From contig JALDTO010000214.1 of the NCBI GenBank assembly GCA_023515725.1, positions 124,001-188,000 on the forward strand: a stretch of DNA of 64,000 bases, written 5' to 3'. The DNA is from Amoeboaphelidium protococcarum X5. Its lineage: Eukaryota; Fungi; Aphelidiomycota. Positions within the stretch are counted from its first letter, which is position 1. Every line of letters begins with the position of its first letter. Positions 26,704-62,653 of this stretch are shown here, piece after piece. The notes beneath the pieces are model-generated. The model saw only the letters and a program-made list of their open reading frames with translations. It ran no database searches and had not been told where the DNA came from. Both the position numbers and the translations under genes were made by a program.

Positions 26704-26988
26704 ATCTCAATTTAATCTATTATGCTATTGACGATAGAAGTGAACGCTTAAGTCCTAAAATCATCATTTTTTGTGTACTCTGGCTTTTAAAGTTCGCGTG
26801 TATCAGGCATATTCTTGCCTAAAAGACATGTTAAAATTGTAATCTTGTGCAACTCTTACGCATCCATCGGGAGCCGCGTACCTGATTGGCCAAGATATAT
26901 TTAAAACCATTTTTGTAGCATTCCAGATTGCTTAGTCTTCTCTTAAAAAGTTTACTCTGCCTTTTTAAAATCGTGTTAGCTCATTTCT

Positions 26989-28341
26989 ATGGTTATAGTG
27001 TCCGATATATTGCGTTATACTGCTCCGCCTAGAGAGCATGTTGATAGGGATAATGGAAGCTCTGAAGAACCAACCAAGCCAAAGAATCCTCTTGTTATTG
27101 ATAATGATCACATTTGCCAACGGTGGACCCATTTTAATGAAGACATTATTGTGCCATTTAATGATTTTATTTAGAATAAGCTGGAAGTTGATTGTGATAT
27201 CAGATTGAAAACTAAAAATCCCGTAATAGTTGGTGAATAGTCCTTGTATGGAGTATTGGTGTCGTATTATTGTACTCTTATTGAAGAGTTGTTTTCAGCA
27301 CTTGGACATGACATCCGCATTGAATAAGGCTCTCAGGATGTGATTCTTGATCCTGATTTTGTAGTCAGTTATCAGAAAGATCCCTCTCTGGAACCTACTT
27401 ACATTCTTCCTATTGAGGTTAAAACGGACTGGGCATTTGATGTTTAAGGTCAGTTGTACGATTTGAATATTCTCAATACTTCCAAGGTCAAGGATGCAGT
27501 CTAGTAGATTTATGGGTATATGACGGCTAATCATTTCAGATATGGGATATTGTGCACTTATGAACGTTTTTATTTTATGAGACGTGGTGGATATAATGGC
27601 TAGCAGAAGACAATGCTTGAGATTAGCGATGTGGTTGATTACCAATAATTAGAGCCTTTTACTATAATGAAGGCGTTGTGTGCCATCGTTCACCTTGCTA
27701 AGACTGATTTTTTCTTGTAGTCTCCATTCGGTACTCCACATGTTACGAGGGAGTCATTTCCTGGGAATCAGGAAGTATAATTTGTCAAGTAATAGATCAA
27801 GTTTCATGATATATGCTTTGGACAACGCGTCACTCGCTCTAGTGTTGGATCTATAGTCAAATATGGAGAAGATTCTGAGTTATTGATGAAAATTGTGGAT
27901 TGTCTCAAGCATAAGAATGAATTTTAGATTGAGAAGCTTTAAACAGAGGTGAAAGCTTACCAATTATTAGCAGAGTTGCAAGGAATCTGTATTCCAACCT
28001 TCCATGGCTATTTCTGCGGCAGTGGCTGGGTTGACTTTATCGTCATGAAGAATGTGGGTACTTCTATAAGAAGACAACTATGGAATGGTGTTGTATAGGC
28101 CACGCCATCGTTCCAAGAAGAAGTTATATTTTAAGTGGCAATTATTCTACAAGAATTGCACAGACGTGGAGTTGCGCATGGCGATGTCAGACTGCCCAAT
28201 GTTGTGCGAGATGATCAAGATTAACTGTTTCTGATTGATTTCTCGGATGCTGTCTTTAGATGTGATGATGAGTTGGAGTTCAACGCCGAATGTAAGAGAG
28301 ATTGGGAGTTTTTGGCCAATTTATTTAATGTAAACTATTGA
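26989..28341 (+). CDS. PD-(D/E)XK restriction-endonuclease-fold + atypical kinase protein, copy 1 (450 aa)
   Basis: LDPDFVV...LPIEVKT...AVQQIYGYM...YGILCTY (nuclease); LMK, EVKAYQLL, HGDVRLPNVV, LIDFS (kinase); intronless. Confidence 0.85.
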
Positions 28342-28791: not shown

Positions 28792-30144
28792 ATGATCAAA
28801 GTATCCGATATATTGCAGTATAACGCTCCCCCTAGAAAGCGTGTCGATAAGGGTAATAGAAGCTCCGAAAGAACAACCATTCCAAAGAATCCGCGTTATA
28901 TTGAAAATGATCACACTTGCCAAAGATGGACGTATTTTGATGAAGACATTATTGTGCCGTTTAATGATTTTATTCAGGATAAGTTAGGCTTTGATTGTAG
29001 AGACTTATTGAATACGGACGATCCTTTGGTATATGGCGAATAATCGTTGTATGTAGTTTTAGATCGGTATTATTGTAATCCCATTGAAGCGATGTTTAAA
29101 GCACTCGGAGACAAAGTCTGCATTGAAATAGGCGCTCAAAATGTGATACTTGATCCTGATTTTGTAGTCAGTTATCAGAAAGATCTCTCTCTGGAACCTA
29201 CTTACATTCTTCCTATTGAGGTTAAAACGGACTGGGCATTTGATGTTTAAGGTCAGTTGTACGATTTGAATATTCTCAATACTTCCAAGGTCAAGGATGC
29301 AGTCTAGTAGATTTATGGGTATATGACGGCTAATCATTTCAGATATGGGATATTGTGCACTTATGAACGTTTTTATTTCTTGAGACGTGGTGGATCTAAT
29401 GGTTAAGACAGGAAGCTGCTTGAGATTAGCGATGTGGTGCGTTATCAGTAATCATAGCCTTTTACTGCAATGAAGGCGTTGTGCGCGATAATCCATATGG
29501 CTAAGACTGATTTCTTCATGACATCACCTTTTAGCACTCCTATCGTGACTAGGAAATCATTGGCAGTTACAAGGGGCAATCTATATATAAAGCAGTAGAT
29601 CATGTTTCATGATATATAGTTTGGAGAGCGTATTACACGCTCCAGCGTTGGATCTATCGTAACCGTTGGGAGAAATCTGGAGTTATTGATGAAAATCGTC
29701 GACTGCTGGAAAGATAGTAATTAAGGTCAAATTGAAAAACTGAAGAAAGAGGTGAAAGCTTACCAATTATTAGCAAAGTTGCAAGGAGAGTGTATTCCAA
29801 CCTTCCATGGCTATTTCTGCGGCAGTGGTTGGGCAGATTTTATTTTAATGAAAAATGTCGGGACTCCTGTAAGTATGACGACTCCTGATGGTACTGTATA
29901 AGATACGTCATAGTTGGAAGATGAGATTAAAAGCTCCGTTTATAAGATTTTAGTAAAATTGCACCAACTTGGGGTTGCGCATGGCGATGTCAGACTGCCC
30001 AATGTTGTGCGAGATGATCAAGATTAACTGTATCTGATTGATTTCACGGAGGCTGTCTTTAAATGTGACGGTGAGGAGGAGTTCACCTCCGAATGTAAGA
30101 AAGATTTGGAATGCTTGAACAATTTGTTTAATGGAGGCCAGTGA
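28792..30144 (+). CDS. PD-(D/E)XK nuclease + kinase protein, copy 2 (450 aa)
   Basis: Same length and motifs as 26989-28341, offset 1803 bp. Confidence 0.85.
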
Positions 30145-53814: not shown

Positions 53815-54161
53815 GGTTTACTGTAGATTTCAAATGTAACGGCCTAGAGAAATGAAAACTCCTTCAGGCGTCGCAGTGCGAACAAGGATGAACCGTAATA
53901 AATAAGACTAAGTTTGAACACAGCGTGTCACAAAAAGCTTTAATGAAGCGACTACTTTATATACATTAAATTCAAGAAACTACACCTAATGTAGTGCGGA
54001 TTATCTTCTACACTTTCCATTCCGTCGAACAAGTAACAGTGGATTGGTCAAGTCACATGGAAGGCACTCGAAGCCCAATCACACCTTTTCAACGATTGAA
54101 CTTTCAGCAGTATTTTTTTTAATTGATCGCTGCTAAATCGCGTAAGACTTGATTTTAGCCA

Positions 54162-54479
54162 ATGCAGATATATAAATTCTGCCTATTGGCGCTTCTGTGT
54201 TTAATGGTAGCTTGCGTTAATGCACAGCCCGATAACTCGTTAGATGTCGATCTGTTCAAGCGCGCCTCGAAATCCTCATCATCATCTTCATCATCATCTG
54301 GAAAATCTGGCGGTAGATCATCAAGGCGATACATTGGCGGTGGTGGTTTCTATTCGCCTGGTGGAAATAGACCTTCGAATTCATCCGCTTCAAAAGTCGC
54401 CTTTGCTTCCAACTATTAATTGATGGCGCCGATTCTACTTAGTATCATCCCACTCATGCAACACGCGATTAGATTATGA
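54162..54479 (+). CDS. Small secreted Ser/Gly-rich protein, possibly GPI-anchored (105 aa)
   Basis: Signal peptide, LFKR dibasic site, poly-Ser/Gly core, moderately hydrophobic tail. Confidence 0.7.
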
Positions 54480-54729
54480 ATTTTTGAATAAGACACATTG
54501 TTGCCTTTACATATTGTAAAATTTTCATTATTAATATCTCGACAATAGCTTATTTGAAGTCACCAGTTTAATATCACTGCATTCTGACATGTTTGCTTGT
54601 GGAGTACTGCGTCTCACATTAAGCTTAAAGTCACAACACGGTCAACTGAAGATTCTCCTTCCGAAACAACACCGTTCATTAAAAGACTTGACTTAATACA
54701 AAGATTTGATATTTGTGTCATTTTTATAA

Positions 54730-55701
54730 ATGGAAGATCCTAGATTTGCGGATATCATTGTGAAAGACCATGAGCGAAAGTCTGTTGAAGCGAATGTGGT
54801 GATAATTGGCTTCCCTCATGATGAAGGTGTTAGGCGAAATGGTGGGCGTGTCGGAGCCAAGGATGGACCAGCTAGCTTCCGTAAATTGTTCTATAGATTA
54901 TGTTCATCAGACACTGAGAGTGGCGTGGATCTGAGTCAACTGAAGATTGTTGATTTCGGTGATGTGGATCCCTCATTGCCTTTAGAATAAGCTCACCTCA
55001 GATTGACAGAATTGGTGTATAAGGTTTTGTAAATTGGCGGTATTCCCATTATAATCGGCGGTGGTAACGATCAATCTTATCTGAATGCATCTGCCCTAAT
55101 TTAACATTTATTGGAGTTAAATAGCAATCCTCAGCGATTAGCCGAGTAAAAATTGCATGTAATCAATGTCGATGCTCACTTGGATGTGAGGCCACTAAAG
55201 AATGGCCAAGTACACTCTGGATCTCCATTTCGCCTACTGGTTGAAGATGATCGCTTCTCCAAGCAGTTGAGTGGCAAGTATATTGTGTACGCAGCACAAG
55301 GTCCACAATGTGCTTCACGTCACGTTGAATATATTAAATAATCTGGTAATCAGGTAATGTTCCTGCCTGCGGTGAAATAGTCATTATCGAATTTTGAATT
55401 GGACCGTAATTGGCTGTCTGCGGTGGCTGAGACCAAAGCTACCAGTATATTTGTATCGTTTGATATTGATTCTATTAGAGCTTCAGATTGTCCTGGAGTG
55501 AGCTGTTCATCACCAGATGGCCTATCTGCTGAAGAGGCTATAGTGATGTGCAAGCAGGCTGGTGGAGATAGTCGCGTTAGACTGATCGACTTTTCGGAAT
55601 ATAATCCAACTATTGAAGAGTATCGCACCGGCAGATTGTTGGCCATGATGGTACACGCTTTCTTGTGTGGCCTCGCTTAAAGACAATAACGTAAATAGTG
55701 A
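54730..55701 (+). CDS. hutG: Formimidoylglutamase (HutG-like, arginase/ureohydrolase family)
   Basis: GFPHDEGVRRNGGRVGA..GP, GGGNDQSY, NVDAHLDVR, HSGSPF, SFDIDS, EYNP. Confidence 0.85.
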
Positions 55702-55785
55702 ACACTAGGACATACATTAACAACTATGTTGTATTAAATCAGATTTCACACTACGACGTAAGATATCTCAAAACACGCTTCAAGT

Positions 55786-57429
55786 TCAATTCCACTTGAT
55801 ATTATTAAGATCGGCCACATTCACGATCCATTCCATATTGTTGAATTCAATCCTCCATTGAGCCATCTTGTGATGTCCGTCATAGACTTCGCAGGTGTGC
55901 GCAGATGCTTTCGGTTTGAGACTCAGCTTAAATCTCAGCGGCAAGTGACGTTTGTCTTCACTCAACAGCTCTTGCTTTATGCCCCAAACCATCGAGTTAT
56001 GGGTGGCAAGGGCGAATTGGGACAAGTTGGGGACAGTCTTGCACCGGCACGGATTCCAAGATTGTTCGTAATACTCGGGCCAACGTTTAGGGAAATTGTC
56101 CACCATGTTGTGCATCATATCGACAGGCCAGCTCTAAGAATAACGCCACAGTCCACGACTCTACACTGGGTCGGTATTCTCAATGACACTCCAGTCGGTG
56201 ATTTCACGACTCTCACTGTACGAAGCAGTGAACGACTTGGTGTAATTAAAGTTCAGTCCACCTTCCACTTGCTCACCTTTAAACCCCAGATTCATACTCA
56301 TCTGGAAACTATCGGTGGAAGACCAGCTGCGGCCAACTTCATGCTTGGTGTTCTGTGTCGGAGGAGAACTTTTCAACCAGAATACATTATCCGGATCTTG
56401 AACACCATCTTCACGTTCTGCATGTACTCCAATCTCAACATTGGACATGTAAATACCGACTCCATCAGGATGAACCATCTAAGTATTTGGATTATGAAGA
56501 CCATCAACCAGCACAAATGCATAGTACAGCTACTGGAATGGCGGTGCCTGCATATACAGATACCAGTAGGTGTTGAGTCGATGGGTTATCACTTGATCAT
56601 CCTTGAAAGGAAACGGATCACTCCACGAGACAACCCAACTCTTATAAGTGGTCTCAATCAGCTATCGCCAAACAGCACCCTCATCCACAGGAACCATAGA
56701 ACCAGTGTTTTAAACTTGGTCCATACCATCTTGGATCTTGAATTACGCATCAGTGGATTTCTATCCTTGGACGTAATTCCAACAGGTGACTTGATCAAAA
56801 TCTCCGGCACAATAATGTAAATAGTCATGCACATCTTGAGCAATTTGCGAAAGCAACTTAGAGCTATCGTTGTTATTACTACCACCAAAAGAAGCAGTGA
56901 ACACTTTAGCATCAGTTACAGCCTAGTCATTTGATGATCGCGAGTAATCAAGTCCAGAGTAAGCAGAGTGAACAATATTCCCATCCTTACCAGCAGGCAA
57001 ATCAAAGACACGATAATGCACAGCATCATGGACATCCTGGAAAGTATCAATCAATAGTAGAGCACTGCCATCACTCGTGTCCTTCATGAAGGGGAACTTG
57101 GCTTCAGTCAATAACTACTTTCTCTATTCACTACTGACATCCACAAGCATTACAGGAATTCCAAATTACAGAATTTACATTACAGATTAAAACTCTAAAT
57201 CTAACTAGAAGCCAAGAGCCACATATGCAGCCACTGTATTATTAGTAGATTCTTTATGAATGAACTACAACTAATGATCACCACTCTATTAAAGCGCCTT
57301 GACAATCTAGAACGAATCAGTGTTCTCAACTGCAATATGAGAGTCGCCAGACAACCACTGCAAAGTGACTGAAGCATGGGCAATACCAACAGCGCAAAAT
57401 CCTGCCAAAATTGTAGATATAGTAACCAT
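55786..57429 (-). CDS. Secreted leukocidin/hemolysin-like beta-pore-forming toxin candidate (547 aa)
   Basis: One intronless frame with TAR=Q; signal peptide MVTISTILAGFCAVGIAHA; SPPTQN followed by amphipathic hairpin SWSSTDSFQMSMNLGFKGEQVEGGLNFNYTKSFTASYSESREITDW, then GLWRY. The fold is inference. Confidence 0.7.
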
Positions 57430-57790
57430 ACTTCTTACAATATTTAACCACCTGATTGTAAGAAAGCACGACTACAAGTGACAATGATAAAGGACACACA
57501 AAACTAAATGAAGACAGAAAGAGAAAAACGCCCAAAACGATGATAAAACGCGCAAAACCAAAATCAGGCGCCGAATGACGCCGCGAAATGCCCAGCTAAT
57601 GTGGCGCTGAAACAAGTCCATTTTTATTGTTTCAGATCGAAAGAATGAATGGCTGGCTGTGTGATGGGCGATGCTCTGATAATTGTCTGCGCTACGTTCT
57701 CTTTCATACTCTGCACTGATGGTGATTTCGTTTCTCTTATATGAATATCTCATTCATTGATTGTCAGACTCTCATATCTCGTCACATATA

Positions 57791-59294
57791 ATGTCTTAAT
57801 TGTCTACTGCAAATTATAGTCAACAGTTAACGTAACAAACTCAGTTAGTTGGTACGTAGTAGACACAACATAGTCCGCGTGATACTCAGGATCTGAACTG
57901 TGCATGGGCAAAACTTGTTGGTCATCAAACTCATTGTAAGTACTCTATTGATATATCATCCATTGAGTTTAACAAGAGCCATTTCACTAGTATTTGTAGT
58001 GCTGTTTGAGAATTGTGTTCCTATTGGGAGACACAGGACGTGCTAGATAAGAATTAATGACTTGCACGTTTCTAACCATCATTGCAGTGTGCAACGCGGC
58101 GCTGATGGAATTGTTTCACTCACTGACCTTTCGACAAATGGCACGTTCCTTAATGGCATACAGGTCGGTAAAGGCAATCAGGTGCCACTGCAACACAATG
58201 ATCACATCGAGTTACTGAAGGGACGGATTTTCTTCATCTTTCTTGACTTGGAGGATTCAAAGATGATGTCTGATAGCGTCAACGATCTTGCCCCGTGTCA
58301 GGAAAAGTATTATGTCTTGAACAAGGTTCTGGGAGAGGGTAACTTTGCAACTGTGCAATTGGCTATACAGAAAGGTAGTATGGAGCGTGCAGCATGTAAG
58401 ATTATTTAAAAGTCAAAGTTGGATCTGCATATCAACAAGAAATAGTTTCAGCATCTCAGAAATGAAGTTCAAGTCTTGCAATCGATCAATCATCCTAATT
58501 TAGTGCAGTTGCTGGATGTTTATGAGACTGACAAGTCTATCTACCTAATGCTGGAGTACGTTGGTGATGGCGGAGAGCTGTTTATGCGTCTGCAAAGCCG
58601 TATTGAACTGTATGAGCAGGTGCCAGACGATTTGAAACCTCGTACTTTTCCAGGATTGGATCCACTCGAAGTATAATTTGTGTTCTACTAATTGCTGCTT
58701 GGTACCTAGTATTTGCATGAACATGATATTAGTCATAGAGACTTGAAGTTGGAGAATATACTACTGGAGACCAATGACAGATTTACTCGCGTCTGTATCA
58801 CTGATTTTGGACTGAGTAAGATTCAAAGTAATAAGACTCGTCTGCAGACAATGTGCGGAACTCTGATATACGTAGCTCCTGAAGTCTTAATGAACACCAA
58901 GGAAGATTCAGGATATTCTAATAAATGCGACTGCTGGTCTTTAGGAGTCATTCTTTACATGCTAGCTTCAGCTTCAATGCCGTTTATTGATGGAGGAGAT
59001 GACCAGCAGTTGAAGTATCTGATCACACGCGGAATCTACGAATTTGATGATCCTGTTTGGGATCTATTTGATCCATCAATCACTGATTTGATAAGCAAGT
59101 TGCTGATTGTTGATGTTGGTATGAGATACTCTATCAGTCAAGCCTTGAATCACCCGTGTGTACAATCAGACATATTCAAGCTGTCGAGATTGTATGAAAG
59201 TGTGACGCTCAAGTCTCAAAGCGAGACAATCACCGACGATGAACTGTACGCAAAGACTGAGATTGACTCCTCTCGTAATATCATCTACTACTGA
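57791..59294 (+). CDS. Chk2/Cds1/Mek1-family FHA-kinase
   Basis: N-terminal SQ/TQ cluster, FHA (IGR, VSNHH, STNGTFLNG), kinase HRDLKLEN, DFGLSK, TMCGT; intron 57936-57999. Confidence 0.9.
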
Positions 59295-59666
59295 CTTACA
59301 CATTAAATCTATACTTGAAATATTTAATATCAAGGACGCAATTAACCGTTGATTATCTAATAAAATACGTTGATATGTGAAAGCAAGTAAGAATCTTCGT
59401 AGCCACAGTACAACTTTCCAATCAACATTCAGTCTATGCTCAATAATCTTATCACTATAGACTTGAATGACATTGAAGGCGTTGCTTCAAGCTACTGAAC
59501 GCTTTTAGATACGAACTAATACGAATCGCAAATGTGTCTGTAGAATAGGAACAGGCATGACAAGCTGGACGCGCAATTAGAGTAGAAATGATTAAAATCT
59601 AATTTTTATAAAGACGACGCTTCGTAATCAATCAATATGTCATCAACAAACGGGAAACTTCATCCA

Positions 59667-61807: not shown

Positions 61808-62653
61808 ATGGTATCCTATGTTGATATCATCTTTCTGGTGTCATCTTTCCTTGTCATTCATGTCGCGTCAGCTGTTTCAAGTGAATTTCAAGAAATGCTC
61901 AATCTCGTGAATGCTGAACGCGCATCTAAAGGGGCCCCGGCCGTTTGTTTGAACGCTAAACTGAACCAAGTGGCGTAGCGCTATGCATAGGTACTCGATG
62001 CTGCTGGAGCTATGGAGCACGAAGGTGTTGACGGGACCGATTTACCTACGCGTTTGTAGGCTGCAGGCTTTCCATACTCCTCTGCAGGAGAAGTCTTGGC
62101 GAAATGCTCCAAGCCTCAAGATGCTGTACGAGGTTGGATTAATTCTCCTTCACATCACAGCGCAATGATCGATCCAAAGTATCAATTAGCTGGTATTGGA
62201 CAAAGCGGCTTAAAGTGGGTCATGTACTATGCAGCGTCTGGTGAGGAGAAATGTTCTTCTGAATTGCCTGCAACATCTCCATCCCCAAGCGCAAAAGCTT
62301 ATCACTCCACTGATTCCCCCGCCTCTGATGTCGATGCCCATACATAAACTTAATCGTTGCCATTGTAAAGCATTTTATCTGCGCCGATTGCTGTTGGTTA
62401 GCCCTCGTCGTCTAATCCTCCGGCTACACCAACTTCATCGCCATCTGGTTCTCCTTCTCCCGCCGATAGTGCCGCTTCGTAAGAAGAAATATTTCTCGAT
62501 CTCTCTAGCTAAAGCAGTTTGGATACATTGAAATCCATTATCATTGGTATATTTCCTGGTCTGGCAGAATCGTCCGAGTAGCTGGATCAGCTAAATCAAG
62601 CGTTGGAGCGCCACGGAATTGGCAAAGGCGGTGTCACCTACATGGCTGGCTGA
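61808..62653 (+). CDS. Secreted CAP (SCP/PR-1) domain protein with Pro/Ser-rich tail
   Basis: Signal peptide; MLNLVNAERA..G, LNAKLNQVAQ, MEHEG, GEVLA, GWINSPSHHSAM. Confidence 0.88.

Follow-up and report, generated by a model that had tools for sequence, protein, structure and literature searches.

A Candidate Secreted Pro-Toxin with a Predicted Hemolysin/Cytolysin-Type Core in the Aphelid Amoeboaphelidium protococcarum, and Its Relatives in Amoebozoa

Introduction

In Vibrio cholerae cytolysin (VCC/HlyA), the signal peptide is removed, the pro-domain is cut by a protease, and the protein passes through a pre-pore before stem insertion opens a pore of 1–2 nm (PMC4549754; statements drawn from articles cited here by PMC number refer to the portions of their text that were available). 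Toxins of the Pfam Leukocidin family (PF07968) carry an amphipathic, Ser/Thr-rich stem without a pro-domain. The hemolysin-family producers named in the available text of two reviews are all bacterial, and eukaryotes are named there for aerolysins and actinoporins (PMC9558359, PMC7914777). Another eukaryotic protein with leukocidin/VCC likeness by HHpred is the nematode-toxic P450139 of Coprinopsis cinerea, which can be set beside the present protein by description only: its likeness covers 75 residues at 63–86% HHpred probability, and a fungal protein partly like these toxins is given in the same source as not haemolytic (PMC6434838). A description of hemolysin/leukocidin-type proteins in aphelids or amoebae was not found in the literature covered, outside which most subscription journals lie. 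The available text of PMC10608142 and PMC9343445 contains nothing on the aphelid protein described here, and the supplement of the latter is unlikely to contain it, since the search there was made against a database with the Paraphelidium proteome.

The gene lies in a window of 64,000 nucleotides from A. protococcarum X5 (contig JALDTO010000214.1, positions 124,001–188,000, forward strand), for which an earlier note, made from the letters alone, had proposed a secreted leukocidin/cytolysin-like toxin. The encoded protein resembles VCC (1xez) and V. campbellii alpha-hemolysin (8jbq) in having a likely signal peptide, a predicted alpha/beta N-domain, a linker and a core in the same order, whereas its identity to them is 7–10% and it is eukaryotic. 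Unlike VCC, it has no beta-trefoil and beta-prism lectin domains (its residue 544 corresponds approximately to VCC residue 456, and its chain stops at 547), and its N-domain has about 75 residues beyond the part that aligns with VCC. It shares the amphipathic Ser/Thr-rich stem with the PF07968 toxins but has no match to PF07968, and its conserved cysteines suggest disulfides, unlike in those toxins. We consider, with a probability of roughly 0.58, that it is a secreted pro-toxin whose predicted hemolysin/VCC-type core would perforate the membranes of the algal host or of engulfed prey.

Coding Frame and Genetic Code

The features discussed in this and the following sections are as follows.

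55786..57429, minus strand: coding sequence, 547 aa, translation table 6, TGA stop, intronless
57373..57429, minus strand: likely signal peptide, aa 1–19, from a hydropathy heuristic
56767..57249, minus strand: N-terminal alpha/beta domain, aa 61–221, likely pro-domain; pLDDT 79 in its own model
56686..56766, minus strand: variable low-confidence linker, aa 222–248, candidate protease-sensitive segment
55789..56685, minus strand: cytolysin/leukocidin-like core, aa 249–547, from structure alignment of the model
56350..56364, minus strand: P356-x-T-x-N360 motif preceding the stem; in 39 sequences, P356 is nearly invariant
56200..56349, minus strand: predicted stem hairpin, aa 361–410, from sequence alternation with a Gly turn at 382–391
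56140..56196, minus strand: D412-W413 and W428-x-Y430 after the stem, conserved in alignments

The gene at 55786–57429 is real. Under table 6, the region is one frame of 547 amino acids in which 20 TAA/TAG codons are read as Gln, and the single intronless gene masked by the genetic code that had been proposed is borne out: the pieces visible under table 11 (55786–56118, 56161–56478 and 56923–57111, overlapped by out-of-frame ORFs) are joined by table 6 into one frame. A. protococcarum is known to read TAA and TAG as Gln (PMC5304391). In the window, table 6 yields 59 frames of 200 codons or more, versus 2 with table 11; when table 11 and five other codes are compared with it, table 6 alone keeps the genes open, and TGA is the stop in all 16 window genes checked. 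Core TAR codons also coincide with alignment columns in which other rows have Gln, at Q432 in 10 of 10 rows, at Q317 in 8 of 10 and at Q300 in 5 of 10. The public protein cluster of the query has three other members, all of them hypothetical proteins of A. protococcarum, and one NCBI member is 547 aa long.

The likely start is 57429, because the upstream extension is frameshifted in other alleles and close homologues begin at the counterpart of this position. A 655-aa start at the in-frame ATG at 57753 was rejected owing to the frameshifting deletions at 57743–57751 in those alleles. On the opposite strand, a frame of 402 codons (55726–56934, plus strand) overlies the core, and 352 of its codons are open even with table 11; it has no Pfam family and is taken as a shadow.

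Genomic Setting and Transcripts

The neighbouring genes encode an arginase-family protein and an FHA kinase, and there is no sign of a genomic island around 55786–57429. Its GC3 is 0.449, compared with 0.377–0.499 in 15 other window genes, and the share of TAR among its Gln codons is 0.51, compared with 0.24–0.71 in the other window genes. None of the runs is recorded as RNA. In two other minus-strand genes of the window, CT..AC-bounded segments are skipped by contigs of the runs X7, X8 and X9 and kept in the DNA-like run X1, so that X7, X8 and X9 are taken as spliced RNA. Contigs of X7 span the gene; one piece (55746–56784) has 71 differences and no gap, and no joint is listed in the gene. 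An intronless transcript thus appears to be present in a close relative, as judged from this run of one study, which bears on presence and not on level or stage.

Several other observations were made in the window. Over 54000–59500, run X1 contains two allele sets, about 90–95% alike and of similar depth in this one DNA run, a pattern that would fit a hybrid or polyploid genome. Two tandem genes on the plus strand, 26722–28341 and 28792–30144, encode proteins that are related to each other and whose C-terminus is atypical but kinase-like, with weak matches to Pkinase/RIO1; the pair is reminiscent of Crinkler-type effectors. At 61808–62653 on the plus strand lies the gene of a CAP-domain protein that looks secreted and has a tail rich in Ser and Pro.

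Domain Organization of the Protein

The 547-aa protein is likely secreted, judging from its N-terminus: the best 11 residues there have a hydropathy of 2.45, and full-length close homologues have a similar stretch. No later transmembrane helix was found by the same hydropathy heuristic, which is not SignalP (best 19-residue window, 1.37). In the N-domain, Cys207 and Cys216 are conserved across the close family. The linker is flexible or disordered in the model (pLDDT below 50 at 222–253), and its length and sequence vary between homologues; no conserved protease or dibasic site was found in it, dibasic pairs being present in 3 of the 10 linkers shown and absent from that of the query.

The core contains the order of elements that had been noticed in the sequence. 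A hairpin with a Gly turn at 361–410 is followed by D412-W413 and W428-x-Y430, as described, while the P-x-x-N element, present as P356-P-T-Q-N360, needs refinement: the proline conserved in the family is P356, so that the motif reads P-x-T-x-N. W428 is nearly invariant in 39 sequences, and D412 and W413 are invariant in 10. One face of the hairpin carries F375, M377, M379, L381 and F383 on the first strand and V388, L392, F394, Y396, F400 and Y404 on the second; the opposite face is small or polar (S, Q, S, N, G and K, then the Gly turn, then E, N, N, T, S, T, S and S). In the model, residues 358–408 lack a resolved conformation, with pLDDT below 50 in the stem, and the hairpin call comes from the sequence.

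Compared with three other A. protococcarum copies, the query is identical at 50 of 50 stem residues, at 293–295 of 299 core residues and at 135–143 of 161 N-domain residues. Identity among the copies is thus 98–99% in the core and 84–89% in the N-domain, as would be expected if the core is under constraint and the pro-part is disposable.

Predicted Fold

Sequence searches did not connect the protein with known families. The query matched none of the families in Pfam and NCBIfam and none of the PDB sequences; PF12563 gave no match to it, and profile searches of PDB with profiles of 10 and of 39 sequences gave none either. PF07968 was without a match in the query, in the 10 alignment members and in the 37 relatives, and membership of the Leukocidin family by sequence, which had been put forward for checking, must therefore be dropped: zero Pfam families for the query and none among the 37 relatives. 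The protein is neither a Pfam Leukocidin member nor a VCC orthologue, and by its predicted fold it would work like a VCC-type beta-pore-forming pro-toxin.

A full-length AlphaFold model built from 10 sequences (pLDDT 60, pTM 0.67) comprises, in order, an alpha/beta domain (about 61–221), a disordered linker (222–253) and a beta core (249–547). The best Foldseek match of this model is 8jbq, the V. campbellii pro-alpha-hemolysin (E 1.3e-9), followed by NetF, beta-toxin, LukGH and alpha-hemolysin. There are 125 matches at E of 0.001 or below, all 40 that were listed are hemolysin-family toxins, and the E values of the hemolysin-family matches range from 1e-9 to 5e-7, with identities to the structural matches of 6–14% and TM-scores by target of 0.23–0.45. 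VIA-align against 48,161 chains places 1xez, the V. cholerae cytolysin pro-toxin, on top (Z 16.1, rmsd 6.1, 313 residues), with model residues 67–544 on chain residues 21–456 and both domains in order. Ranks 1–7 all belong to the hemolysin family (Z 16.1–11.3, the six after the top at 11.3–13.3), and the first unrelated fold has Z 9.2. Aligned directly, 8jbq gives Z 16.1, rmsd 5.0 and 326 residues. For the core, model residues 249–545 align with 136–459 of the VCC pore 3o44 (Z 12.1, rmsd 3.5, 215 residues), and alpha-hemolysin 7ahl gives Z 13.7, rmsd 4.7 and 209 residues. Staphylococcal alpha-hemolysin and leukocidins, CytK, NetB/NetF and the C. perfringens beta and delta toxins resemble the core fold at Z 11–14 over about 200–240 residues. 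The start of the core coincides with that of the mature Vibrio toxins, residue 250 with 133 in 8jc7 and residue 249 with 136 in 3o44. No aerolysin-family entry was found among the Foldseek or VIA-align matches listed.

Support also comes from a distant relative, StcA of Dictyostelium discoideum (see below), for which an independent Atlas model exists (pTM 0.55). Nearest to it, over nearly the whole length, are leukocidin-like cores of uncharacterised Bacteroidota/Synergistota clusters (TM 0.59–0.66), and in two of the five clusters PF07968 is found on 21% and 13% of the members, the clusters with such members having TM 0.66 and 0.59; this likeness is between models, and those proteins were not found by sequence search. 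The StcA model is also near a leukocidin-like cluster and VCC (TM 0.51, 371 residues). The alpha-hemolysin/leukocidin/Vibrio cytolysin fold anticipated by the earlier note is ranked first by both aligners and agrees with the StcA model. A core of alpha-hemolysin/leukocidin type, with a beta-sandwich and a rim, is predicted, and the hemolysin fold would account for it.

The same alignments bear on whether the protein makes a pore at all. A secreted beta-sandwich protein of adhesin- or Ig-like kind, whose Ser/Thr-rich segment mimics a stem, would explain the missing sequence match to toxins, and adhesin and pilin domains do come next after the toxins in VIA-align, at Z 7–9. This explanation is nevertheless highly improbable: the toxins stand well above the adhesin and pilin folds in two aligners, with more residues aligned and the domain order kept, the second model of the distant relative agrees with the toxin fold, and the hairpin, which no other part exceeds in conservation, falls where the stem of the toxins lies.

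For the N-domain, the signals for the Vibrio-style cleavable prodomain that had been suggested differ. The full-length alignment is colinear, which is suggestive of a Vibrio-type pro-domain, whereas the match of the domain alone, modelled from 24 sequences (pLDDT 79), is weak, with only Z 4.1. The VCC pro-domain is then at rank 8 of 48,161 and is not separated from SepF-like folds (Z 5.0); residues 67–147 align with 21–104 of 1xez (Z 4.1, rmsd 3.7, 70 residues). In Foldseek, the domain alone finds nothing at E of 0.001 or below, 8jbq having E 1.1.

Family Members and Phylogeny

A word-indexed search gave 9 clusters and a full HMMER scan 50 proteins at E of 0.001 or below, 20 of which were looked up by name. 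The family is common to aphelids and Amoebozoa, as far as sequence homology tells. Pelomyxa schiedti has a relative at E 1.7e-61, and the other named eukaryotic matches are from Synstelium, Heterostelium, Polysphondylium, Dictyostelium purpureum and D. discoideum, together with a second protein of A. occidentale; there are no fungal proteins among the 20 phmmer matches looked up by name. The cluster of the D. discoideum member contains DDB_G0267562, which is stcA. StcA is a sequence homologue with the same two-domain layout, 22% identical to the query over 310 aa of the core, and the reverse search from it recovers the query (phmmer E 9.5e-9, library size 1.8e9). P0045 (phmmer E 2.7e-12) is a false match produced by FctA repeats and does not match the core profile.

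The named bacterial matches are from Calothrix, Sulfobacillus and a Paracaedibacteraceae MAG, and a plasmid protein of Haematospirillum was found by tblastn (E 3e-13). Bacterial members are mostly core-only, with the N-domain also present in Calothrix and in one other protein. The family is rare among the prokaryotes searched: of 62 genomes from one order, the broad profile matches 1, and of 401 from one phylum it matches 2, one of these matches being the profile's own member. A DNA-pattern scan of metagenome contigs, prokaryote genomes and phage records found no close relatives, and a 22-residue match in a viral contig was disregarded.

Some members deserve separate mention. In A. occidentale, MP638_000111 (P0033/P0074) is a divergent paralogue adjoining the canonical MP638_000110, with a reshaped, less Ser/Thr-rich stem, and its NCBI model appears fused to a separate Rieske/DUF455 gene; a leukocidin-like two-component pair is a possible interpretation of the two genes. 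Next to a bacterial member with an N-domain (L004:523-3380, genome G303), immediately downstream of it, is a gene of the necrosis-inducing NPP1 family (E 2.5e-28). Among the core-only members, one is on a Haematospirillum jordaniae plasmid (L001:5872-6921), with no signal peptide seen, and one is in the Paracaedibacteraceae MAG (L002:4001-5020), with a signal-like N-terminus. Paracaedibacteraceae are amoeba endosymbionts, and these may possibly have served as a transfer route. The environmental homologues P0007, P0008, P0027 and P0031 diverge abruptly just past T-H-x-S-(M/I/V), which suggests a shared intron that is absent from the window's gene.

An unrooted IQ-TREE phylogeny with long branches was made from 41 core domains and 297 columns, leaving out fragments, near-duplicates, P0045 and the L004 protein. 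The query groups with A. occidentale in a clade of 11 rows (97/98). The 19-row side holding this clade (100/99) includes Pelomyxa and no named bacterium, 14 of its 19 rows being without a name; all four named bacteria and the dictyostelids, StcA in its separate clade, are on the opposite side. The named Amoebozoa do not form one group, since two changes are needed on the unrooted tree. Recent bacterial transfer of the aphelid gene is not supported, because GC3 and TAR use are native, A. occidentale has an orthologue and Pelomyxa is the nearest named non-aphelid relative. Of the horizontal acquisition that had been suggested, the recent form thus lacks support, while an old bacterial origin, and more than one transfer, may underlie the aphelid gene.

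Possible Function

By analogy with VCC, the N-domain would help folding and hold the monomer inactive along the secretory route until the linker is cleaved by a protease, either on the host surface or inside the food vacuole. The monomers would then bind lipid through the Trp/Tyr-rich rim, the lectin domains being absent, and form a ring of about 7–9, in which each would release the hairpin 361–410 into a beta-barrel of 1–2 nm. An aphelid injects itself into the algal cell and phagocytoses its cytoplasm (PMC3975115), which makes the membranes of the host and of the food vacuole the likely targets; given this lifestyle, the membranes met would be the host plasma membrane, host organelles and the food-vacuole contents. 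Counted against the pro-toxin reading are the missing toxin link at the sequence level, the moderate model and the stem pLDDT below 50.

The target may be non-algal, since the amoebal relatives eat bacteria. With the same pore mechanism, the protein would then be a phagolysosomal or secreted antibacterial of phagotrophic protists, in accordance with the named eukaryotic carriers, all of which are phagotrophs (aphelids, Pelomyxa and five dictyostelid species), and with the opportunistic bacterial flora in infected algal cultures (PMC9343445). However, characterised hemolysin-family toxins are classed as anti-eukaryotic (PMC9558359), algal cytoplasm is the food of aphelids (PMC3975115), and a long distance separates the aphelid and dictyostelid clades in the tree, so a bacterial target seems unlikely.

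StcA, the sole relative with a phenotype, comes from a developmental suppressor screen (PMC4404348), which counts against a killing role. The peak of stcA in D. discoideum falls at 20 h of development; when the gene is disrupted, the developmental block of the tgrC1-null mutant is suppressed non-cell-autonomously, and the protein has been published as lacking distinctive features (PMC4404348). These data, together with the reshaped stem of the A. occidentale tandem paralogue, would fit a domesticated toxin fold that acts as a self-directed pore or an extracellular signal, for example when the plasmodium cleaves, when spores are released or when cells communicate with one another. For the aphelid protein, such a role is decidedly unlikely: StcA's 22% core identity spans the deepest split of the tree, and nothing connects the aphelid protein with development. 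A host- or prey-directed pro-toxin is preferred. A wider proposal, tentative and well short of even odds, is an old and so far unrecognised family of pro-domain-gated hemolysin-type pores in phagotrophic protists on both Amorphea sides, namely aphelids, archamoebae and social amoebae, in which the aphelid member would be a weapon and StcA would have a developmental or cell-killing role downstream of the TgrC1 adhesion system.

Significance

The distant relatives in amoebae make it likely that a eukaryotic branch of the hemolysin-type toxins has been overlooked. Such a branch, with full-length members that carry a pro-domain, would widen the hemolysin family, and the clade, invisible to Pfam, could possibly be a source of new protein nanopores. 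The orphan Dictyostelium stcA would gain a testable molecular identity, for which a mutant already exists. For aphelids, parasites at the root of fungi that crash algal cultures, the protein would be a first candidate cytolytic effector and, if the wider proposal is true, the weapon used by this sister group of fungi to breach algal cells and digest them.
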